Shown one piece after another: positions 19,800 to 60,123 of a stretch of 64,000 nucleotides of DNA; position 1 is the stretch's first letter, and every line of letters begins with the position of its first letter. The notes beneath the pieces were generated by a model. The model was not told the DNA's origin. It worked only from the letters and a program-made list of their open reading frames with translations, and did not search any database. The stretch is from a virus (lineage: Duplodnaviria > Heunggongvirae > Uroviricota > Caudoviricetes), in the IMG/VR virus record IMGVR_UViG_2908567220_000002, positions 1 through 64,000 of that record, one strand, 5' to 3'. The translations under genes were made by a program, and so were the position numbers.

Positions 19800-20374
19800 T
19801 GCGCTTTACCTCCCGTCGCCTCGTTGTACAGTTTCATGGCGTGCTGTGCCATCGCGTGCGCCTCCGTCGGTGCAGGGCGGACATCACGTCCGGTTCCCGG
19901 CTGTGGTACATGCTGCATACGGGCAGTCAGTCCGCCTTTCTGGCCTGCGCCCCCTGCCACCGCCGCTTTCATCACGGCTCTGGCCTGTTTCACACTCATG
20001 CGGGTGTTGAAGGCCAGCTCTGCGGCAAGGGCCGGATTTTTCGCTGCATACGGCGTGGCGAAGATGGCTGCGCAGCGATGACGTTCGCTGGCGCGGGCCT
20101 TTTCTTCGTCATCGTCGTCTTCTGCGTTTTCATCGTCGTCGTTATCGTCATCATCCGCACGGGAGCGCGCCTTACGGCTTTCGCGGCGGTCATCGTCGTC
20201 ATCCGCCTGCCCGTCGTCGTTATCGTCGTCATCCGCACGGGAGCGCGCCTTACGGCTTTCGCGACGGTCCTCGTCATCCTCCGCATTCTCCCCGTCGCGT
20301 TTGTCCTCCGGATCGTCATCCATTCGCGAACGACCGCCCATGCCTACCAGGTGCATGAAAGAAAATTTACCCAT
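19796..20374 (-). CDS. Putative capsid scaffolding protein with highly acidic tandem repeats
   Basis: 192 aa between protease and decoration genes; 78-bp unit repeated twice (20151-20306) encoding RRESRKARSRADDDDNDD. Confidence 0.45.
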   Translation of the reverse strand: MGKFSFMHLVGMGGRSRMDDDPEDKRDGENAEDDEDRRESRKARSRADDDDNDDGQADDDDDRRESRKARSRADDDDNDDDENAEDDDDEEKARASERHRCAAIFATPYAAKNPALAAELAFNTRMSVKQARAVMKAAVAGGAGQKGGLTARMQHVPQPGTGRDVRPAPTEAHAMAQHAMKLYNEATGGKAQ

Positions 20375-48789: not shown

Positions 48790-49038
48790 ATGGCAAGACT
48801 TATTCTGCTCACTGAGTGGGCAAAAGAGGAATTCAGCGATCCGGTCCCTACTCCGGGCACGTTAAGTAAATACGCTAAAGCCGGAATGATATTTCCTCTC
48901 CCCAAAAAAGTTGGAAGACACTGGCGAGTGGATCCGCGAGCTCGCTTTGTCGGAATGGTAAACAAGCCGGAGGTGATCGCCACAGATCACCCTGCTTTAA
49001 AGAGGATACTGGAAGATGGCACGCCCGCGAAAATATAA
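48790..49038 (+). CDS. xis: Excisionase
   Basis: 82 aa immediately upstream of and overlapping the integrase gene. Confidence 0.65.
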   Translation: MARLILLTEWAKEEFSDPVPTPGTLSKYAKAGMIFPLPKKVGRHWRVDPRARFVGMVNKPEVIATDHPALKRILEDGTPAKI

Positions 49039-50146
49039 AACCGCTGTTCCGGGATTATCTCCGTATTTTGACAAAAGAAATAACAAAGTTTACTGGCGTT
49101 ACAGGCATCCCATCACAGGTAAAAATCATGGACTCGGCAGTATTGACCAGAAACTGGCGGAAACCATTGCAGCAGAAGCGAACAGCCGTCTTGCCAGACA
49201 ACAAATGGAGCAAATGCTCAGTCTGCAGGAGAAAATTATTAGTGATACCGGCGGCGCATCAACCGTTTCCATTTTTCTGAATAATTACAGAAAAATTCAA
49301 CAGGAAAGATATGAGAACGGAGAGATCAAACTCAGCACGCTGAAGCAAAAAGCGGCTCCTCTCAGGGTGTTTGATGAACGTTTTGGAGCCAGGCCGCTAG
49401 ATGCCATAACAGTAAAAGATGTGGTATCGGTGCTGGAAGAATACAAGGCAAAGGGACATAACAGAATGGGACAAATTTTCAGGAAGGTATTGATCGATGT
49501 TTTCCGGGAGGCTCAACAAACGGGTGATGTCCCGCCAGGCTTTAACCCGGCTGAATCGGCAAAAAAACCGCAAGTGCGGATATCAAGACAGCGACTGACT
49601 TTTGATGAGTGGATGATGATTTATAACGCAGCGGAAAAGGATGGTTACTTTTTACAGCGCGGCATGCTGCTGGCACTGATGACGGGCCAGCGTCTTTCGG
49701 ATATTTGCAAAATGCAGTTTTCGGATATCCGGGATGGTTACCTTCATGTCGAACAGCAAAAAACAGGAGCCCGGATAGCCATTCCTCTGGCTCTGCGTTG
49801 CGACAAATTAAATCTTACCCTGGGTGACGTGGTGTCATCCTGTCGTGATTACATCCTTAGTCCGTGGTTATTGCACCATCATCACGCTAAGGGGATGGGT
49901 AAGCGCGGCGGGATGGTTAAACCAGCAACGTTAACAGTCGCATTTAAAAAAGCCCGGGATTCTGTGGATTACAACTGGCGTGCTAATGGCACGCCACCCT
50001 CTTTCCATGAGCAAAGATCTTTATCAGAACGATTGTTCAGAGAACAGGGAATTGATACCAAAATTTTGCTGGGCCATTCGAATCAAAAAATGACCGATGT
50101 TTACAACGATGCACGCGGTAAGGAGTGGAAAAAACTGGTCATTTGA
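49016..50146 (+). CDS. int: Tyrosine integrase (lambda Int family)
   Basis: 376 aa; N-terminal arm-binding-like region; C-terminal catalytic region LLGHSNQKMTDVY. Confidence 0.85.
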   Translation: MARPRKYKTAVPGLSPYFDKRNNKVYWRYRHPITGKNHGLGSIDQKLAETIAAEANSRLARQQMEQMLSLQEKIISDTGGASTVSIFLNNYRKIQQERYENGEIKLSTLKQKAAPLRVFDERFGARPLDAITVKDVVSVLEEYKAKGHNRMGQIFRKVLIDVFREAQQTGDVPPGFNPAESAKKPQVRISRQRLTFDEWMMIYNAAEKDGYFLQRGMLLALMTGQRLSDICKMQFSDIRDGYLHVEQQKTGARIAIPLALRCDKLNLTLGDVVSSCRDYILSPWLLHHHHAKGMGKRGGMVKPATLTVAFKKARDSVDYNWRANGTPPSFHEQRSLSERLFREQGIDTKILLGHSNQKMTDVYNDARGKEWKKLVI

Positions 50147-50157
50147 TGACCAGTTTT
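50131..50157 (+). promoter_or_regulatory. Perfect 12-bp inverted repeat spanning the int stop codon (terminator or sib-like retroregulatory hairpin)
   Basis: AAAACTGGTCAT-TTG-ATGACCAGTTTT. Confidence 0.45.
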
Positions 50158-50187
50158 GCAGAAGAGTTTTGCAGAGATTTTGCAGAG
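50154..50187. promoter_or_regulatory. Three direct integrase arm-type repeats (P'-arm-like)
   Basis: TTTTGCAGA(A/G) at 50154-50163, 50167-50176, 50178-50187, immediately after int. Confidence 0.6.
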
Positions 50188-50430
50188 AAAATTAGAAGCG
50201 GTATCCGGCAGAGAACATAAACACCCACGGATCCAGTCGTACCGCGTCTTTCACGGGGGTTCCATTAAATTTATAGCTGGCGGTTGTGTCGATATCCATG
50301 TACCACACTGGTAGGTTTCAAAAAACACAATAACCAATTGTATTTGAAGCAAAAAAACAAGACTTTGAGATGTTTTTTTGTACCTTTTTTTATGCTTTTA
50401 ACTGTCTGATTTTATTGAAATCTTTTTTAG

Positions 50431-50440
50431 TTTTGCAGAA
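50431..50440. promoter_or_regulatory. Fourth arm-type repeat (P-arm-like) on the other side of the presumed core
   Basis: TTTTGCAGAA in an AT-rich stretch about 270 bp from the first cluster. Confidence 0.4.
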
Positions 50441-50620
50441 GGAATTTTTTACTTGATTGTAACTTTTTCGTTTTTTTGGGGCTAATTGACGCGCAATGCT
50501 GGGCGGGGAGCGCACAGCCAAAAAAACCGAAATTGACCGCTAATTACTGCCAATCATCATCGCTCTGATTGAGCGTAAATCATTCAGGTTATTCAGTTCT
50601 TCCTTCTGCTCTCGCTGACG

Positions 50621-50902
50621 TCAATAAATCCCATCATTGCGATCAACCTCATCCTTAACCATTGATGCGAGCAGTTCTTCCAGTTTCTGCGCTGACAGCT
50701 TTACCTGGTGATCTTCAGCATCTTCCCGGGCTATTGTGGTTCGCGCAGTGGCTGATTTTGCTGACATCACCACAGGGGGCAGACGGACCATTGAACCATG
50801 GCCTCCGGAACAAATAAGGGCAAAAATAACAACCACTATCGAAAGCTCACAAACTAACCGCAGCACGTTCCTGCATACGACGTGTCTGCGGCATAATCCC
50901 AA
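50621..50902 (-). CDS. Hypothetical protein in the b-region of prophage B
   Basis: 93-aa ORF; its 5' end lies inside the tfa-derived repeat, so it may be non-functional. Confidence 0.3.
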   Translation of the reverse strand: MGLCRRHVVCRNVLRLVCELSIVVVIFALICSGGHGSMVRLPPVVMSAKSATARTTIAREDAEDHQVKLSAQKLEELLASMVKDEVDRNDGIY

Positions 50903-50905
50903 TGA

Positions 50906-51175
50906 TTACTCCCTGACAGGATTTGCAGGCCACTCAATATCAGGTACAGTTGATGTATCAACACGATTCAACAATACCCGATATTTATTCCATGCCTCCA
51001 GCAACGATCTTTCTTCCTCCGTTGCGATTTCCAGATCTACAGCATCCTGCAGTGGCGCAATATACTCACTGAATTCCTGGATGTAGAACTGTGTGGTGAC
51101 GGTCTTCCAGCCATTCGGCTCCTGCTGTATCGAAGCATACCAGGCTATTTCAATATCGCTATGCTGCGGCAGCAT
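50906..51175 (-). pseudogene. Tail fibre assembly protein (tfa) C-terminal fragment
   Basis: 89-aa ORF ending [22 protein letters not shown]; far shorter than an intact Tfa. Confidence 0.55.
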
Positions 51176-51231: not shown

Positions 51232-51900
51232 ATGGTGAAATCAATGAAAAAAAACACAGATGATGGGGCTAAAATTTACACACCACTTACCCTAAAGCTT
51301 TATGACTGGTGGGTTTTGGGAGTATCAAATCGGCTTGCATGGGGATGTCCTACAAAGGAACACCTTCTTCCACACTTTCTGGAACATGTAGGTAACAACC
51401 ATCTGGATATTGGTGTTGGAACTGGGTTTTACCTTACTCACGTACCTGAGAGTAGTCTGATATCTTTAATGGATTTGAACGAAGCTAGCCTGAACGCGGC
51501 ATCTACAAGGGCTGGGGAATCAAAAATTAAACATAAAATTAGCCATGATGTTTTTGAACCTTATCCCGCGGCGTTACATGGTCAATTTGATTCCATTTCC
51601 ATGTTTTACCTTCTTCACTGCCTGCCTGGAAATATATCTACAAAAAGCTGTGTAATACGCAATGCGGCGCAGGCCTTAACTGACGATGGAACTCTATACG
51701 GAGCCACAATTCTTGGCGATGGAGTTGTGCACAATAGCTTCGGTCAAAAACTGATGCGCATTTACAATCAGAAAGGCATCTTTTCAAACACAAAAGATTC
51801 CGAAGAAGGCTTAACACATATACTCTCAGAGCATTTCGAGAATGTTAAAACCAAGGTTCAAGGTACTGTAGTAATGTTTTCCGCTTCAGGGAAAAAATAG
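51232..51900 (+). CDS. Class I SAM-dependent methyltransferase (no DNA-MTase motif IV; substrate unknown); AT-rich cargo gene
   Basis: 222 aa; Rossmann motif I-like LDIGVGTGFY; flanked by the two tfa-derived repeats. Confidence 0.65.
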   Translation: MVKSMKKNTDDGAKIYTPLTLKLYDWWVLGVSNRLAWGCPTKEHLLPHFLEHVGNNHLDIGVGTGFYLTHVPESSLISLMDLNEASLNAASTRAGESKIKHKISHDVFEPYPAALHGQFDSISMFYLLHCLPGNISTKSCVIRNAAQALTDDGTLYGATILGDGVVHNSFGQKLMRIYNQKGIFSNTKDSEEGLTHILSEHFENVKTKVQGTVVMFSASGKK

Positions 51901-51949
51901 CATCCAACCGCAGCACGTTCTTGCTTAAGACGTGCTGCGGCATAATCCC

Positions 51950-52137
51950 AATGATTACTCCCTGACAGGATTTGCAGGCCACTCAATATCAGGTGCAGTT
52001 GATGTATCAACACGGTTCAGCAACACCCGATACTTTTTCCAGGCTTCCAGCAATGAGGTTTCTTCCTCCGTTGCGATTTCCAGCTCAACAACAGTCTGAA
52101 CGTACCGGGAACAGCCTCCTTCAGAGCTTGAAGGATA
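51950..52137 (-). pseudogene. Second tfa C-terminal remnant, in frame directly after the stf stop codon, no start codon
   Basis: Reverse-strand translation after the stf stop reads [26 protein letters not shown]..., continuing into the Tfa-like C-terminus; about 85 percent identical by eye to 50858-51060. Confidence 0.45.
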
Positions 52138-55100
52138 TCAATGTTCGCTTCCTGTTAACTGCCGGACAAGTGCAACCAGTTCGCTTACCTGATTTTCCAG
52201 AGTGCTGATCCGGGTGTCTGCTGTTGCCAGATTTTCACGTAGCGTTGTGTTTTCCTCTTCCAGCGCGGTAACGCGATCATCTGTTTCACGGGCGACCTGA
52301 ACAAGTAAACCCGTCACGGCGGCGTAGTCAACATTAAGATAGCGCGTTTCTTCGCGTAGCTCGTTGCCGTCAACGGTCGGGCCTTGCAACTCTTCACCAT
52401 AATGAGTAAACGATCCCACAGCTTCTGGTATCGCCTCCATTACTTCCTGTGCAATAACGCCAGCATAAGGCATCCCGTTTTCCCTGAGCGTGTAGGTGTA
52501 TCCGTTCATTTTACGGATTGCTTTCGTCGCGTCGCTGATAACGAGAATATCGTCTTTAAGGTCGCGGTCTGATGACTGATTCAGCGTTGTGCAATTAATA
52601 GCGCCATTTACATCAAACAACTGGCCTGCTGACGTTTTTTGCGCATAAAACAGATACGCAGCAGACGTTCCAACCTCAAAAACGTTTTGTCGAGTACTGG
52701 AACCCCACACCCTGACAGAAAACGGCAGTTCTGCATTGCCTGAGTTCTGTAAAACAAAACGATTACCAGTCCCTGATTGCTTTGTAAGGGTTAAATCAAC
52801 GGTTGAGTTAACCTCATTCTTGTTGATAGTGAGCGCCTGCGCTGTAGCCCCGTTAACAGCACCTGTTTTGAGTTGAACCGCGCCGTCATTACCATTTAAC
52901 AGTATCTCAGCTCCGCTAAAGAAATTTTTTAGCGACAGCATCTTACTTACGCCGACTGATGAACCCAACGCCCACGCGAGAGAATTACCGGTGCTATCAA
53001 ACCCACGTACAAAGCAATCCATTTTGCTATAGTCTGACGTGCTTCCAAGGACATCAATTCGCCCTCCGCCAGATTTTACCGGACTAGATGTGGTTAACGA
53101 CCTGACAGTTATATCCTGATTCCATCCGGAAACAACAACCTGACTCCACGCTGTCCAGTTTCCATTAACAACAAAGCGAACGTATATACGTTTTGTGTCG
53201 CTGTTAATCAGCGTTTGCATGTTCGCATAATCTGAATCCCTAACCTTACGAGTCGACTCTACACGGAGCAAAAAGTTACCGGTTACACCGTCAGGCTTGT
53301 TGGTGATATTTGCACCACCTCCAGAGGATGGACAACTATAGTATTTAACCGCCCCGGCATCTGACCTGATGGTCAGGTTGTTAAGATCAACCTTCTGGCC
53401 GCCAATGTTTTCAGGCTCGATGGCTCCTGCTATCCCGGCACTGAACGTAGCAGCGGCTGAAAACGCTGTCGTACCTTTGAAAGCCAGTTGACCACCAATC
53501 GTTAATCCCTTGTCGAGTTTCGCTTGCGTGATCAATTTGCTGTTTTGTTTCTGATCAGGACTCTCGCCAAAAGCCAGATCCCCATTAGTATCAATTCCAA
53601 GATACTTTTGGTTCACGTTGTCTAACTTAAACCCAATGGACACATTTTCAGAAGAACCGGAACGCGTTAAAACCAACGGCGTGTGCTGTACTCCATAGAT
53701 GCTGAGCGTAGTTGCCGATGAGTCAGTGTCGGTATTTGCAATCTCAATCGTTCTGCTTTTAATTTTATACGCTACTGTGAGATCACGGACTTCAACCCTC
53801 CCGTCGTGACGAACAACAAGATCCCCTCCTGATGTCCCCCCTGCTGTCTTTGCCCTGATGCGAACTTCGCCAAGCGAATCAGTGTTAGGACCAGCATAGA
53901 TTATGCCGCGCTCTGTGTTATCGCCAGTATAAAACCGCAAAGCGGTGACTCCACTGTCTGCCCGCAGGAAGACTGACGGTGTACCTTTTTTGATTGTCAA
54001 GTCACCGGTCATTGTATCGCCGGTTTTTTTTACCTGCGCATCGTTCGTTACGTTGCCAAGTCCAACATCCGATTTCGACGGCTTGTTTGCCGAGCCGTAT
54101 AGCTCATTGACGCTAAAAGTCCCGTTGTTAAGCCGGGCATCGGTGCCGGCATAGATCTTAATCTTCGCGGTTGAGTAGTCGATATTGATCGCTGACCACG
54201 TATCGCCGCACCGCGAGAATATACCAGAACCGTGGCTATAAATGGTCGCCGTGCTTCCGGTCGGCTTATCACCGCGCCAGAAATGACCACCTTTGTCACG
54301 CAGAGCTTTTAAGATCTCTACATCGCTCATCTTGCCGTTTGTTGATATCCCGCTACCGCCAAGACCGAAAGCGCCTGTAAGCATAGCATTAGAAAGACCC
54401 AAATCTGCTTTAGTCGGCTTGTTTAACTGGTCGTAAATCCTTACAACGGGGCTTTCAACATATCCAGAAGGCGCGGCGGTTTGCTTAACAAATCCGTCTG
54501 GAATGTATAATTCCGTGCGTGCCGTCTGCGCCAGTACCGCAACCTTTGCGCCGTTGATAAATGCGCGCTGGAAGGCCCAAACCTCAATAAAGCCATCACC
54601 TTTAACCAGGCCGTAACGCATCTGGTTGTTATCGGTCAGCCCGGTTGACCCTAAGCGGCGTATACTCAGATGACGAGAAACATTATCCGCACTAAGCAAA
54701 GAAGGCATACCGCGCGCCGAGATCTCGATAAAGTCAATGTTTCCGTAAGGGGAGCCGTAGTTACCAGCGTTAGTAACCATTAGCGTTACATGGCAATTGC
54801 CGCTTCCGGGATCGGAAAGTTTCGCGATCTTTATGTAAAAAGACTCATTACCAGTAACAACGGGCCAATCGTATTGCGTCATCGGGCTGACGAGTCCCCC
54901 GACCTTGTCGAGATATTCTTTCGCCTTGTTCTCTGACGCTTTAGCGTTGGTTTCGCTGACCTTTGCTGCTGCCTCACTATTTTTCGCGTTGGTTTCTGAT
55001 TTTTTGGCTGCTGTCGCGGAGTTTGCCGATGCAGTTTGTGAGTCTGCTGCCGCCTGTGCGCTGTTATCCGCATTCGTCTCAGACGTTTTTGCGGCCTTCG

Positions 55101-55917
55101 CGGAATTTCCTGCCGCCGTTGCCGAGGAAGCTGCACTACTGGCACTTGATGATGCGTTCGTTTCTGATGATTTCGCTGCCTCTTTTGAGGCCGCCGCATC
55201 CCGGGATGAGGTGGCAGCTTCTGACGCTTTCGTGGTCGCGGTGGATGCAGAAGTGGCTGCAGATTTTTGTGACGCTGCAGCATTCGTTTCTGACGTTTTC
55301 GCCGCACCGGCACTGGTGGCTGCCGCGCTTTTTGAAGACTCTGCGGCGGCAGCACTTTTTAATGCTTCAGTGGCCTTTGTTGATGCCGTTCCTGCGCTGG
55401 AAAAAGCCTCCTGAGCCGACGTCGCGGCCTGTCCGGCTGACGTTCTGGCTGCGCGTGCTGAGTCTGCAGCATCAGTCGCATGGGTTGCCGCCTCACGGGC
55501 TGATGTGCCGGCATCGCTGGCTGACTTCTTCGCGGCTGCCGTGTTCTGTGCCACTGCGGACGCGTTACGCGCCACCTCTGCCACCATCAGTTCAAAGCGG
55601 CGCAGTGCCTCCGGACGGGCATCATCCTCCGTCATGGCACCGAGAAAATCATTCAGCGTACCCGGTTGTGAGTCTTCATACACGGTGATGGTCCCGGCAT
55701 GCGATGGCGGGAAGCCTTCCACCAACAGAATAACGCTGTACTGACCGTACTCAACGTCCATGCTGTAACGCCCTGCTTCATCCGGATTTTCAGATGCCAC
55801 CGTGTTCACCACCACCGTGGTGCTGTTACGTTTTGCTTTCAGCTGGATTGTGCAGTTCTGTACCGGTTTACCTGCACCGTCTTTCAGTACACCTGAAATC
55901 TTTACTGCCATATTCAC
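52138..55917 (-). CDS. stf: Side tail fibre protein (lambda Stf-like) with C-terminal intramolecular chaperone (peptidase S74-like) domain
   Basis: 1259 aa; N-terminus matches lambda Stf as recalled; Ala-rich repeat region; C-terminal DRDLKDDI...YLNVDYAAVTGLL plus coiled-coil tail. Confidence 0.75.
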   Translation of the reverse strand: MNMAVKISGVLKDGAGKPVQNCTIQLKAKRNSTTVVVNTVASENPDEAGRYSMDVEYGQYSVILLVEGFPPSHAGTITVYEDSQPGTLNDFLGAMTEDDARPEALRRFELMVAEVARNASAVAQNTAAAKKSASDAGTSAREAATHATDAADSARAARTSAGQAATSAQEAFSSAGTASTKATEALKSAAAAESSKSAAATSAGAAKTSETNAAASQKSAATSASTATTKASEAATSSRDAAASKEAAKSSETNASSSASSAASSATAAGNSAKAAKTSETNADNSAQAAADSQTASANSATAAKKSETNAKNSEAAAKVSETNAKASENKAKEYLDKVGGLVSPMTQYDWPVVTGNESFYIKIAKLSDPGSGNCHVTLMVTNAGNYGSPYGNIDFIEISARGMPSLLSADNVSRHLSIRRLGSTGLTDNNQMRYGLVKGDGFIEVWAFQRAFINGAKVAVLAQTARTELYIPDGFVKQTAAPSGYVESPVVRIYDQLNKPTKADLGLSNAMLTGAFGLGGSGISTNGKMSDVEILKALRDKGGHFWRGDKPTGSTATIYSHGSGIFSRCGDTWSAINIDYSTAKIKIYAGTDARLNNGTFSVNELYGSANKPSKSDVGLGNVTNDAQVKKTGDTMTGDLTIKKGTPSVFLRADSGVTALRFYTGDNTERGIIYAGPNTDSLGEVRIRAKTAGGTSGGDLVVRHDGRVEVRDLTVAYKIKSRTIEIANTDTDSSATTLSIYGVQHTPLVLTRSGSSENVSIGFKLDNVNQKYLGIDTNGDLAFGESPDQKQNSKLITQAKLDKGLTIGGQLAFKGTTAFSAAATFSAGIAGAIEPENIGGQKVDLNNLTIRSDAGAVKYYSCPSSGGGANITNKPDGVTGNFLLRVESTRKVRDSDYANMQTLINSDTKRIYVRFVVNGNWTAWSQVVVSGWNQDITVRSLTTSSPVKSGGGRIDVLGSTSDYSKMDCFVRGFDSTGNSLAWALGSSVGVSKMLSLKNFFSGAEILLNGNDGAVQLKTGAVNGATAQALTINKNEVNSTVDLTLTKQSGTGNRFVLQNSGNAELPFSVRVWGSSTRQNVFEVGTSAAYLFYAQKTSAGQLFDVNGAINCTTLNQSSDRDLKDDILVISDATKAIRKMNGYTYTLRENGMPYAGVIAQEVMEAIPEAVGSFTHYGEELQGPTVDGNELREETRYLNVDYAAVTGLLVQVARETDDRVTALEEENTTLRENLATADTRISTLENQVSELVALVRQLTGSEH

Positions 55918-56643: not shown

Positions 56644-59600
56644 TCAGCTAATCGTGATACCTGCTGTGGATTTCTTCATCACCACAACCAGCAAATCACT
56701 GATACTGGCTGTGGGATACCAGTCATTTACCAGCCACGCTGATACCGAAAACTCCAGCGTCATGTGACCGCGACCAGCAGGCATATCAATAACACCTGTA
56801 TAAACCAGCGTATTATCCAGCGCGGTACGGTTATAAATTTCAGCACCGTTTTTCTTCACTATCAGGCGGCATGACGAATAAATATCGTTATTCTCCCGCT
56901 CATGTTTAGCGCCACGAAACGCCACCGCGGGAATAACAATCTGCCGGTCAAACGGCTGATCGTCATAAACCCTGACGGTAATGGTCCCTGATGGCCACCG
57001 CTCCGGTGCACGGGAGTCCCGGGGGAAAGCTTTGCCCACTGTTTTAACGAGATCGCCTTCAATCTGGTTCGCAGACAGTTTTCCCAGAACCCGACAGTTT
57101 TCATTTATCGTGACATTGTTGAGCGTCCCGGCGTTCGCATTCACACTGCCACTGATATCCGCATTTTTCGCCGTCAGTCGCCCGTCCGGTGTCAGGGAAA
57201 ATGCCGGTGGATTTCCACCGCTGGTAATGGTGGGGGCCGTCAGGCGTTTCAGGAACACGTCGTTCATGAATATCTGATCGCCCTGACCAACAAACATCGG
57301 TTTTGTGTTGCCATTCGCAGGATTAACCATCGCAATCCTGTCCGCCGCCAGCAGCACCTGACTCTGCATGCCGTCAGGGGTGTTCTCAATACCGGCACCA
57401 ATACCCGCGATATAAAGGCGTCCGTCCTGCATCTGCTGCAGCTTCACAGCCCACATGCTGTTCAGGTTATTATTTGTATCAACCTGAACCTTCTGTATCT
57501 GCTGAATTGCCGCACTCTGGTCTTCCAGTTTCTTATTGACGGTCTGCGTGATTTCATTGCTGACATCCGTAATGGACGTCCTGATTTCAGCCAGGTCAGG
57601 CGCAAGCTGACCGTTATCAATCTGCGTCCACAGCTCCTGAGCCAGATGGGTTTTCCCTATCTCGCCTTTGAAAAAATCCAGATAGCCGGATGCGTCATCA
57701 CTCGGCTGACCAACAGCCTCCACGAATGCCGATTTGCCAACGGTGTTCACACTGCGAACGTAAAAATAATAATTATGGCCCGGTTTGATATTGATACTGG
57801 CGGCTATCCAGTACAACGCCGTACCAAGATAGCGTGCTGTGGTTTCAACCTGCCTGATATCCGCAATCCGCTTTTCCGAGAACCAGAACTCAAACTGTAC
57901 CGTCGGATCATAAACCGCAAGATGCGGCGTGGCGGTTATCTGAAAATAGCCCGGCGTCAGCTCAATCCGCGACGGCGCTGCCGGTGCGGCAATCCGGAAC
58001 GATACCGACGCCGGATCGCCCTGCTGCCCCCACGCATTTACTGCCCGGACTGTCAGCCTGTAGTTCCCCAGAGCCAGTTGTGTGAAGCGGTAAGTGGTTT
58101 CCGTCGTCCGGGCCGTGCTGACCAGCCGCTCACTGCCGTCATCCGCTGCCACGGTCAGGCGAAGCAGGAAGCTCACGCCCTTCACCACCTTCGGCGTGTC
58201 CCAGCGGGCCAGCACCTGGTATTCCCCGCTGTCTGCGGTGACTTCTGCGGTCAGATGCTGCACTGCTGGCGGCGTGACACCATTCACCGTGCCGCTCTGG
58301 TCGCCGTCAAAGTGCGCCCCGTTATCCACGATGGCCTCTTTTTCCGGTACATGCTGCACGGCGGTGATGGCATACGTGCCGTCATCGTTCTCACGGATAC
58401 TCACGCAGCGGAACAGGCGCTGGCGCAGCGTCGGCAGCTTCAGCCCCCATACGCTGTATCCGGCAACGCCGTCAGGAACACGGCTCACTTTTACCTTCAC
58501 GCCGTCGGTGACGGACTGGACCTCCACGCCGACCGGATTGCCACTTCCGTCAACCAGGCTTATCAGCGTGGTACCGGAGGATGGCAGCGTGATTTCACGG
58601 TCGAGCGTCAGCGTCCGGGTCTGGCTGTTCACCGCCAGCACGCGCCCGCCGGTGCTGATACCGGCATAGTCATCATCGCAGATTTCAATGACATCGCCCG
58701 GTACATGGCGAAGCCCTTCAGCACCCACGCTGAAGTCCACGGTCTGCGTTTCCAGCAGCTCCGTTTTAATCAGCCACAGCCCGGCGCGGTGTGCCTGCCC
58801 CCGGCTGGTACAGCCAAAGGCATCCATCTTCGTGACGTTACGACCGTAACGGGCAATGGCCTGCGAGTCCTCCACAAGCTCTGTTGCCGTCTCCCAGCCG
58901 TTATCCGGGTCAATCCAGTTCACTTCAACGGCATTATGGCGGTCTTTCAGGGCGCTGAAGCTGTAGCGGAATGGTGCGCCATCATCCGGCATCACCACAT
59001 TACTGCGGTTATAGGTCCACACCTTATCCGATGGTCGGTCCTGCACGAACGTCAGCGTCTGCCCGTTCCATACCGGCATACAGCGCATCGCCGAGCAGAA
59101 ATCACTGAGCACATCCCACGCCTTACGTTGTGTGGTCAGGTACGCATTACAGGTGATGCGCGGCTCCGTACCGCCAAAGCCGTCCGGCACCGACTGGTCA
59201 CAATGCTGGCCGATGACATACAGCGCCCATTTGTCCACATCCGCCGCACCAAGACGTTTCCCCATGCCGTAGCGCGGATGGGTCAGCATATCCCACAGAC
59301 ACCAGGCCATGTTGTTGCTGTATGCTGGCTTAAACGTTCCGTCCCAGATACCGCTGTATTGCCGCGTCTGCGGGTTATAGTTCGACGGCACCTGCAGAAT
59401 GCGCCCGTGCAGATGATAATTACGGCTCACCTGCTGGCTGCCGAACTGCTCCGAATCCACCTGCACGCCGACCAGTGCCGTGTTCGGGTAGCACTGTTTC
59501 ACATCGATGATTTCGGTGTATGACGACCAGAGCGTTTTGTTCTGCAGCTGGTCTGTGGTGCTGTCCGGCGTCATCCTGCGCATCCGGATATTAAACGGGC

Positions 59601-60123
59601 GCGGCGGCAGGTTACCCACCACCACCGAGGCCAGATACTGCGAGGTGGTTTTGCCCTTAATGGTGATGTCTTTTTCCGTCACCCAGCCACCATTACGCTG
59701 GATCTGAACCAGCAGGCGGACTTCCGACGGATTCCTGTCCCCCTTTGAGGTGGTTTCCACCAGTGCCTGCACGCCGAAGGTAAAACGCAGTCGGTCAATG
59801 TTTGCCGACGTGATGGTCCGGGTGATCGGCGTGTCGTATTTCACTTCCGTACCCAGCACCGTCTCGGAGCCGGAGGATTCAAATCCCTCCGGCGGTGTCT
59901 GCTCCTGCTCACCGGCCCGGAACACCACCGTGACGCCGGAGATGTTGGTATTCCCCTCACTGTCCAGCACCGGCGTACTGTTCAGCAGCACGCTTTTTAA
60001 TCCATCCACCGGACCTTCAATCGGCCCTTCGCTGATGGCATCGATCACACTCAGCAACTGCGTGGACTTCAGGTTGTCCTTCGCTTCGCGCGGAGTATGC
60101 CCCTTACTGCTGCCTTTACCCAT
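56644..60123 (-). CDS. J: Host specificity protein J (central tail fibre/tip)
   Basis: 1159 aa; position after I; recalled similarity to lambda J. Confidence 0.85.

Follow-up and report, generated by a model that had tools for sequence, protein, structure and literature searches.

What occupies the DNA between the integrase gene of one prophage (A) and the tail-fibre genes of another (B) in the 64-kb window, the whole stretch of 64,000 nucleotides that was analysed? A preliminary description of the locus had proposed a complete P-core-P' site rather than a simple attL, with A and B integrated in tandem at one attB so that a hybrid site is created. We hold with high confidence that positions 50131-50443 constitute a complete lambda-type attP lying between two different, head-to-tail prophages at the 3' end of ompW. 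The features of the locus are collected in Table 1.

Table 1. Features of the ompW-type attachment site and its flanks (window coordinates)
Feature	Position	Strand	Remarks
xis of prophage A	48790-49038	+	Overlaps int start; Pfam PF07825 Exc, E 4.3e-07; annotated as excisionase in homologous loci
int of prophage A	49016-50146	+	TGA stop 50144-50146; lambda-type heterobivalent tyrosine recombinase, PPompW 'IntE' type
Hairpin	50131-50157		Perfect 12-bp inverted repeat, 3-nt loop, spans int stop
Three direct repeats, int-proximal arm	50154-50187	+	Start-to-start spacing 13 and 11; putative arm-type Int-binding
O segment, 121 bp	50190-50310	-	Phage-borne substitute for ompW 3' end; encodes VWYMDIDTTASYKFNGTPVKDAVRLDPWVFMFSAGYRF*
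Core TCGATATCCATGTACCACACTG	50289-50310		22 bp identical to bacterial attB
Int-distal arm (P')	50311-50443		AT-rich; from prophage B; ends just past fourth repeat
IHF consensus AATCAGACAGTTA (WATCARNNNNTTR)	50399-50411	-	Ends 20 bp before distal arm-type repeat
Fourth, distal repeat (putative arm-type) TTTTGCAGAA	50431-50440	+	253 bp from 50178 copy
DUF4376 pseudogene, distal end of prophage B	~50541-50810	-	RefSeq annotation of homologous locus L001
Tail-fibre assembly remnant, prophage B	50906-51175	-	Pfam Caudo_TAP, E 1.7e-24
stf of prophage B	52138-55917		
J of prophage B	56644-60123		

The integrase of prophage A contains the Pfam domains Arm-DNA-bind_1 (PF09003, E 5e-21) and Phage_integrase (PF00589, E 1e-15). 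It matches the lambda Int structures 5j0n and 1z1b over its full length (E 3e-55); residues 14-375 align to 5j0n, with the R, K, H-x-x-R, H and Y residues conserved. Identity to lambda Int is about 36%, and amino-acid identity to the PPompW intE of LC567818 reaches 96.3%. On the other side of the site, the DUF4376 pseudogene, the Caudo_TAP remnant, stf and J confirm that the tail-fibre end of a second prophage adjoins it, as had been noted before. The two prophages are unlike, with a tail sheath and baseplate (contractile) in A and a lambda J and stf in B. A search of genome contigs with Int returned one locus only, in E. albertii NBRC 107761 (96% amino-acid identity); the junction there runs on into unrelated sequence and is uninformative for the tandem model.

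When ten attB, attL, attR and junction sequences are aligned, an attR-type int-side arm meets an attL-type distal arm at the core boundary 50310/50311. The boundary falls after ...CCATGTACCACACTG (position 50310), and bacterial flank is absent on both sides. Alignment with the K-12 attB, attL and attR gives the order int(A)-arm-core-arm-tail genes(B), and because no bacterial DNA lies between these elements the site in the window is a full attP. This attR-type left half joined to an attL-type right half supports the proposed P-core-P' site as opposed to a simple attL. Within the 64-kb window neither the 121-bp ompW segment nor the distal arm was found a second time; the outer ends of A and B lie off the window, and the tandem reading is completed from analogous genomes.

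The centre of the site, overlooked in the preliminary description, is a phage-borne ompW 3' end, and it names attB. Comparison with the bacterial attB (K-12 ompW) places attB at the ompW 3' end and yields a 22-bp identical core. Translating the window alongside K-12 ompW shows that the stop codon of the O segment is the reverse complement of 50192-50194. The segment is labelled 'duplication due to insertion of PPompW' in the LC5678xx records and appears as a partial OmpW pseudogene in RefSeq genome annotation. The stretch between the repeats had been called AT-rich, which holds for 50311-50460 (20-30% GC) but not for 50190-50310, the ompW 3' end, with 45-52% GC. Identity with K-12 ompW at the core covers 22-28 bp, with a sharp break on the distal side (50310/50311) and diverged ompW homology on the other. 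The strand-exchange region is probably 50289-50305, which is bracketed by flanking polymorphisms; variant cores go with the distal side in loci L016, L026, L027, L047 and L090. Core-type inverted repeats (GTGGTA...TACCAC) picked out by eye around CGATATCCAT are not conserved in the window's own allele, and no core-site assignment was made from them.

Tandem integration of A and B at one attB, with a hybrid site between them, is supported both by the alignment and by the same junction in E. coli GPEC403-625. In that genome the junction is followed by a 46-kb lambda-like prophage ending in exo-xis-int-P-O, an intact ompW and yciC, and O157:H7 strain EC4115 has the same layout. Of the E. coli genomes, 17 complete ones have the full junction, and about 543 others match 83% of the 521-bp query, having the O-P' stretch but lacking the int-side arm; in SS17, the one genome inspected, this stretch is an ordinary attL. 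The junction type is an ordinary one, already documented for tandem prophages in E. coli ompW.

The integration site, the 121-bp segment and the IntE-type integrase place the window site in the PPompW family. Like the window, PPompW prophages (LC567818-LC567841) have the ompW 3'-end site, the 121-bp att and a hairpin plus three repeats after int; Int identity is 96%, whereas the window int/P-arm allele has diverged to 92% nucleotide identity. Passages of Nakamura et al. 2021 (PLoS Pathog, PMC8112680) report tandem second PPompWs in four O157:H7 strains, confirmation of the 121-bp PPompW att by sequencing of excised circles, and excision and circularisation by PCR, all of the latter on other alleles than the window's. 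In these passages att is defined via PCR sequencing, with arm-type sites, an IHF site and the hairpin going unmentioned, and the PPompWs described are lambda-like, in contrast to prophage A with its contractile-tail module.

Genome DS26-1 bears on which prophage supplied which half of the site. It shares 99.9% identity with window positions 1-3600, and an A-type prophage has its left end (yciE-O-P') there, 464 bp leftward of the counterpart of window position 1; by analogy, the left end of A would lie just outside the window. The distal arm at this end in DS26-1 is of a different sequence type from the window's, which makes P(A)-O-P'(B), a hybrid site, the probable composition of the junction. 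Among complete genomes, the best E. coli match across the junction reaches only 95%. These comparisons indicate that the stretch is a mosaic absent from the complete-genome collection.

The breakpoint matches, to the base, the att core boundary of independent attL and attR sites, the structural modules of A and B are unrelated, and the same junction is seen repeatedly with several distal-arm types, as repeated site-specific events would give. These observations make homologous recombination between related prophages, or a duplication, an improbable origin of the junction, one in which the attP-like site would be a by-product instead of the result of a second Int-mediated integration. Such an origin would find candidate recombination stretches in the exo-xis-int module that the prophages share or in the 121-bp ompW segment, and could invoke GPEC403-625, where the exo, xis and int proteins are identical between the tandem prophages, a pattern that gene conversion or duplication could explain; a passage of PMC8112680 also reports prophage-prophage recombination at the ompW locus.

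Under the favoured site-specific origin, one phage would have entered attB by Int/IHF recombination, and the attP of a second phage would then have recombined with either attL or attR of the prophage already resident. The outcome would be one core with the int-side arm of A on one side and the distal arm of B on the other. In tandem lysogens of lambda (Campbell model), an attP lies at the junction between the prophages. Lambda polylysogens suggest by analogy that recombination of the site with the outer attL or attR would release A alone or B alone, and recombination between attL and attR would release A and B together.

The arms of the site carry the repeat TTTTGCAGA(A/G), that is TTTTGCAGAR, of which the 64 kb hold four copies, at 50154, 50167, 50178 and 50431, all on the plus strand. 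Chance expectation is 0.42, and none of 100 shuffles contained four or more. The three repeats after int and the fourth at 50431 thus stand as first described and are the only copies in the 64 kb. Three proximal copies (two in two deletion variants) are found in 43 of 43 scorable related junctions, these being the sampled junctions long enough to score and every one having been found via the repeat motif itself. A metagenome pattern search returned 120 loci, from which about 95 chance matches were filtered out and 25 related loci kept. On the distal side, TTTTGCAGR is located at +119/120 from the core in five diverged distal-arm sequence types and is absent from every attR, and homology among the distal arms stops directly after it. 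The preliminary description had counted a coincidental distal copy among the findings that would refute its reading; the fixed position in five arm types and in the attP of phage 4A7 disposes of that objection.

We regard the TTTTGCAGAR/TTTTGCAGAG repeats, from their sequence and placement, as candidate Int arm-type sites flanking the core. The arm-type assignment is sequence-based, and three close direct repeats also recall Xis site arrays. Xis sites in the lambda attP, however, are confined to one arm, whereas the repeats here occupy both, at a fixed distance from the core in the five diverged arms and with homology ending just past the motif. In phage 4A7 the motif varies along with the Int sequence while the 3+1 layout is retained. 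It is accordingly very unlikely that the repeats bind another protein, be it Xis or a host factor, or that the distal copy is fortuitous.

The same regularity extends to the putative IHF site at 50399-50411, one of four exact matches to the IHF consensus in the whole 64-kb window. This consensus recurs at +87/88 in every P-O-P' junction that reaches the position and in no attR, and is common to the five diverged distal-arm types. The 20-bp spacing between the IHF consensus and the arm repeat is also seen in the DS26-1 attL and the phage 4A7 attP. Four arm types compared pairwise share on average 66-70% identity close to the core, 86% over the IHF-plus-arm block and 35% past it. In the int-proximal arm, nothing matches the IHF consensus at one mismatch or fewer.

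The perfect 12-bp inverted repeat across the int stop, a further element of the preliminary description, is present and consists of AAAACTGGTCAT (50131-50142), the loop TTG and ATGACCAGTTTT (50146-50157). The 64-kb window has no other perfect stem of at least 12 bp whose loop measures 3-10 nt, and any such stem appeared in only one of 30 Markov shuffles. Four of the 12 base pairs are G-C; the predicted folding energy is -14.9 kcal/mol on the plus strand (z-score -3.4) and -14.4 on the minus strand (z-score -4.9). When the stem is taken as the 8-bp CTGGTCAT/ATGACCAG part alone, the int strand continues with U4 and the ompW strand with U6. A simple consensus terminator scan did not report the hairpin. 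The int-strand U-tract is only 4 long. A compensatory C-G to T-A variant exists in E. coli TUM1886 and one metagenome contig, and two further natural variants weaken the stem.

The most plausible reading of the hairpin is a putative bidirectional terminator, serving int (+) and, in the attR context, ompW (-). Of the two roles suggested for it earlier, that of a terminator is reasonable given the stability on both strands, the U6 tract and the compensatory variant, while that of a sib-like element fails on its placement on the int side of the crossover. In lambda, sib lies across the crossover from int, and integration parts sib from int; any member of the sib/tI class must be so placed. Here the hairpin lies on the same side of the core as int and does not differ between attR and P-O-P' junctions. 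It therefore stays linked to int in phage and prophage and cannot sense the att state. A retroregulator that exposes the int mRNA to RNase III-dependent decay only when attP is intact is hence a highly improbable reading, despite the stable hairpin at the int 3' end and the intact attP that follows int(A) in the tandem junction. A 12-bp stem is also short for an RNase III substrate. A sib-like structure past the distal arm was sought at 50440-50560, where the fold is no better than that of shuffles (z-scores -0.1 and -0.8). As a terminator, the hairpin would most likely stop convergent transcription, that of int coming from one side. In an ordinary lysogen it may also end the rebuilt ompW, in place of the native terminator displaced by integration.

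The lambda attP contains arm-type sites P1, P2 and P'1-P'3, IHF sites H1, H2 and H', and the core C-O-C'. The window site resembles it in its homologous arm-binding Int, the adjacent Xis, three candidate arm-type sites by the int 3' end, a far arm with a candidate arm-type site and a putative IHF site, and an overall size of about 290 bp. It differs from lambda in the arm motif (TTTTGCAGR instead of lambda's), in an int-proximal arm in which no IHF consensus was found and which is long because it includes 95 bp of surrogate ompW coding sequence, and in an identity with attB of 22-28 bp compared with 15 bp. Provision of a substitute gene 3' end by the phage, leaving the gene intact in the lysogen, is familiar from phage 21 and e14, although their target is icd, unlike the ompW target here.

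A closer structural parallel comes from Escherichia phage 4A7 (Bievrevirus, LR595864.1; relatives 3W and ev017), a free phage with a genuine attP whose Int is 50% identical. Its attP has the same 3+1 repeats right after the int stop, with a spacing of 13 and 12 compared with 13 and 11 in the window. The motif covaries to TTTTGGGGA, and 20 bp separate the end of the IHF consensus from the distal copy, as in the window. A gene 3'-end fragment with a terminator hairpin likewise lies inside the int-proximal arm. The hairpin of 4A7, however, comes after the repeats whereas that of the window covers the int stop; the distance to the distal copy is 360 bp, against 253 bp in the window, and the target gene is different.

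A broader reading, which we judge evenly balanced between right and wrong, is that the PPompW-type attP is modular, that unrelated phages such as A and B could stack and swap at ompW via a functional hybrid attP, and that the hairpin, as a bidirectional terminator brought by the phage, keeps the rebuilt ompW properly expressed. Its modular part is drawn from geometry, namely three repeats on the proximal side and one on the distal side, the latter preceded at 20 bp by an IHF site, an arrangement common to at least five distal-arm sequence types, interchangeable on this reading, and to phages with only 50% Int identity. Literature searches found no description of the arm-site consensus or of a terminator role for the hairpin, and a search for the motif string gave unrelated primer matches only.

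The value of these results is chiefly for annotation, and they do not open a new biological question. The boundary between prophages A and B is fixed to the base, attB is named as ompW, and the orphan 'OmpW pseudogene' of annotation pipelines is accounted for. A candidate arm-site consensus, TTTTGCAGR, and a site map are provided for an integrase that about 44% of complete E. coli genomes carry. Effector- and Stx-carrying prophages are known to gather at ompW, a hot spot for them, and a mapped modular attP would aid in predicting which of the prophages excise singly or jointly.

We aligned the region around the end of the prophage A integrase gene (int) in ten sequences: the window, two other junctions (GPEC403-625 and strain 118), three attR sites with the layout int-P-O-ompW (PPompW_14040, DEC5D and TUM1886), the int-P-O locus of Escherichia albertii (L006), two attL sites with the layout yciE-O-P' (SS17 and PPompW_132418) and the empty K-12 attB. 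Here P and P' are the int-proximal and int-distal arms, and O is the 121-bp ompW 3'-end segment including the core. The window is attR-like up to ...TCGATATCCATGTACCACACTG (50310), a stretch covering int, a hairpin, three direct repeats and the ompW 3' end in its phage version, and attL-like from 50311 on; bacterial flank of the yciE side or the ompW 5' side is absent from the window junction in the alignment. An attR half joined to an attL half without bacterial flank defines P-O-P', and the junction is thus a full attP, as proposed in the preliminary description, which had favored a complete P-core-P' site over a simple attL. Int carries the lambda arm-binding and catalytic domains and aligns over its full length with lambda Int structures and retains the catalytic residues; an Exc-family xis overlaps the int start.

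The minus strand of 50192-50310 translates to VWYMDIDTTASYKFNGTPVKDAVRLDPWVFMFSAGYRF followed by a stop, a diverged copy of the OmpW C-terminus (K-12: VWYMDIDTTANYKLGGAQQHDSVRLDPWVFMFSAGYRF and stop). RefSeq labels the homologous stretch a partial OmpW pseudogene, and GenBank PPompW records carry the same 121 bp, adjoining intE and xisE, as 'duplication due to insertion of PPompW'. Comparison with a prophage-free strain, suggested earlier and made here with the empty K-12 attB, showed that the phage copy matches bacterial ompW perfectly for only 22 bp in the window allele (50289-50310); for the common allele the figure is 28 bp. Phage-specific polymorphisms on the left, such as the G at 50288 common to the TUM1886 attR, stay with the int-side arm, and right-side variants (ACCAGACCG; L016, L026, L027, L047 and L090) move with the distal side, placing strand exchange, we infer, within 50289-50305. 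The other part of the 121 bp stands in for the ompW 3' end, leaving a lysogen with an intact gene.

Among species-representative genomes, the closest Int (96% amino-acid identity) is that of E. albertii NBRC 107761 (L006, 4290-4800), with P-O next to it. Past its core boundary (CACACTGG, then CAGTTGCC...) comes sequence other than ompW or a distal arm, perhaps a secondary attachment site or the result of a rearrangement. IMG/VR and metagenome contigs L026, L047, L090, L123 and L126 are attR-like junctions whose core end varies (GTACCAGACCG or GACTG) and whose bacterial-side flanks differ, suggesting that the same Int family may use ompW alleles or paralogues in other hosts.

The three repeats after int and the fourth distal copy were likewise borne out. 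The window has four TTTTGCAGAR copies in all, each on the plus strand (50154, 50167, 50178 and 50431), against a chance expectation of 0.42, and none of 100 shuffles reached four. The sequence between them, described as AT-rich, is so at 50311-50460 (20-30% GC) but not at 50190-50310 (45-52% GC). Junctions were sampled from IMG/VR, metagenomes (filtered) and E. coli genomes. Among them, all P-O-P' and O-P' sites of sufficient length match the IHF consensus WATCARNNNNTTR exactly, on the minus strand at +87/88 from the core anchor, and have TTTTGCAGR at +119/120; both are absent from all ~30 attR sites. The distal arms are of five sequence types, and pairwise comparison of four representative ones gives a mean identity of 66-70% by the core, 86% in the IHF and repeat block and 35% beyond it, a drop indicating that homology stops at ~50443. 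As a separate observation, the E. coli O55:H7 DEC5D attR (L008) and L021 lack the first arm-type repeat through a 13-bp deletion and have one additional A in the A-run ahead of the hairpin; their integrase is annotated ~50 codons longer, overlapping ompW, and this variant may be a decaying att/int.

The next-nearest Int relatives in the phage collection are ~50% identical. The free phage 4A7 has three direct TTTTGGGGA repeats right after the int stop (spacing 13 and 12) and a fourth copy 360 bp off, with an IHF consensus ending exactly 20 bp before it; the DS26-1 attL and the window (50411 to 50431) both have this 20-bp gap. Between 4A7 and the window the repeat motif changes with Int whereas the 3+1 geometry is common to both, the behavior expected of arm-type Int sites. 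A coincidental distal copy, which had been named as grounds for rejecting the site, thus appears to be ruled out, also by its fixed position in all five arm types. The 4A7 attP (L151, 2138-2550; Escherichia phage 4A7, LR595864.1) further contains a post-repeat terminator hairpin (AACGGGCGT/ACGCCCGTT), then a host-gene 3'-end fragment on the opposite strand, two IHF consensus sites and the fourth repeat.

The inverted repeat noted over the int stop is present, with the TGA (50144-50146) within its loop and right arm. It is the sole perfect hairpin in the 64-kb window (stem of at least 12 bp, loop of 3-10 nt), and 1 of 30 Markov shuffles contained any such hairpin. Its folding energy is -14.9 kcal/mol on the plus strand (z = -3.4) and -14.4 on the minus strand (z = -4.9), and the U-tract behind an 8-bp GC-containing stem reads UUUU on the int strand and UUUUUU on the opposite strand. 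A terminator or a sib-like retroregulator had been suggested. The lambda sib-type mechanism requires integration to part the element from int. The hairpin is identical between attR sites and P-O-P' junctions and so stays attached to int whatever the att state, which excludes the sib-type reading. ompW is read on the strand opposite to int; in an ordinary lysogen, the rebuilt ompW transcript would pass the surrogate stop (50192-50194) and the three repeats into the hairpin, and the native ompW/yciE terminator hairpin (folded separately) remains at attL after integration. Together with the U-tracts on both strands, this points to the hairpin as a probable phage-supplied bidirectional terminator. 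In favor of termination, TUM1886 and one metagenome contig have a C-G to T-A change that is compensatory and synonymous, but two natural variants weaken the stem and a simple terminator scan did not call the hairpin. In 4A7, the analogous terminator hairpin directly follows the surrogate gene end, instead of covering the int stop as in the window.

Prophage A (50146 leftwards) carries a tail sheath, baseplate and lambdoid early genes, and prophage B (from 50311) lambda-type stf, Lom and J; A and B are distinct phages rather than two copies of one. B extends to the right past the end of the window, and the layout proposed for its far end is taken from other genomes. In GPEC403-625 the same junction precedes a complete 46-kb lambda-like prophage ending exo-xis-int-P-O-intact ompW-yciC, EC4115 has the same start of the tandem, and the full junction is present in 17 complete genomes. 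The alignment and the GPEC403-625 layout uphold the main interpretation, tandem integration of A and B at one attB. No second O segment or distal arm was found elsewhere in the 64-kb window. E. coli DS26-1 shares 99.9% identity with window 1-3600, and in that strain yciE-O-P' is found 464 bp left of the counterpart of position 1. This A-type distal arm is of another sequence type than 50311-50443, the common arm adjoining a DUF4376 pseudogene in ~560 E. coli genomes, and the junction is therefore most likely the anticipated hybrid, P(A)-O-P'(B). The first phage would have entered attB through Int/IHF recombination, and the attP of the second would then have recombined with the resident's attL or attR; the order of arrival is indistinguishable because the informative polymorphisms fall outside the exchange region. 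If the site behaves like those of lambda polylysogens, Int could free A or B singly from the junction and an outer attL or attR, or A+B together from attL and attR.

Features of the att region and of the prophage A cargo region
Feature	Position	Strand	Remark
int ORF, prophage A	49016-50146	+	ORF call
Inverted repeat AAAACTGGTCAT-TTG-ATGACCAGTTTT	50131-50157		perfect 12-bp stem
IHF consensus match	50399-50411	-	exact match; only three others in the 64-kb window
ORF6N/anti-repressor gene	1-561		cargo region of A
Second ORF6N/anti-repressor copy, frameshifted	~747-960		cargo region of A
Alpha/beta hydrolase, split in two around G-run	G-run near 1440-1465		cargo region of A

At the left end of prophage A, the cargo region (1-2000) shares 99.8-99.9% identity with E. 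coli DS26-1 and ETEC E24377A, whereas the att junction has only 95% identity to any complete E. coli genome, indicating a mosaic source prophage. A distal tail protein of A (3599-8023, minus strand; 1474 aa, baseplate-wedge N-terminus), labelled 'leucine-rich repeat protein' in relatives, is periodic: an 81-nt (27-aa) unit is present in 22 or more in-register copies (3812-6541). The head-gene region of A has a tandem 78-nt duplication (20134-20289, 90% identity) in overlapping ORFs. In prophage B, a 164-nt direct repeat of tail-fibre-assembly gene fragments (50886-51049 and 51935-52098, 90% identity) flanks a SAM-dependent methyltransferase gene (51232-51900), which looks like a moron inserted into, or duplicating, tfa.

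According to the published survey, 44% of 767 complete E. coli genomes carry PPompW, attP sequences from excised circles confirmed its att, and four O157:H7 strains carry a second PPompW in tandem (Nakamura et al. 2021, PMC8112680), so tandem PPompWs are already on record there. The junction belongs to the PPompW att system and the lambda-type attP class, and is an ordinary finding. Our literature search found no description of the arm-site consensus, the conserved IHF-arm module or the terminator reading of the hairpin; these seem previously undescribed, and are annotation-level additions to a known kind. The 4A7 attP provides an att map for that phage group.
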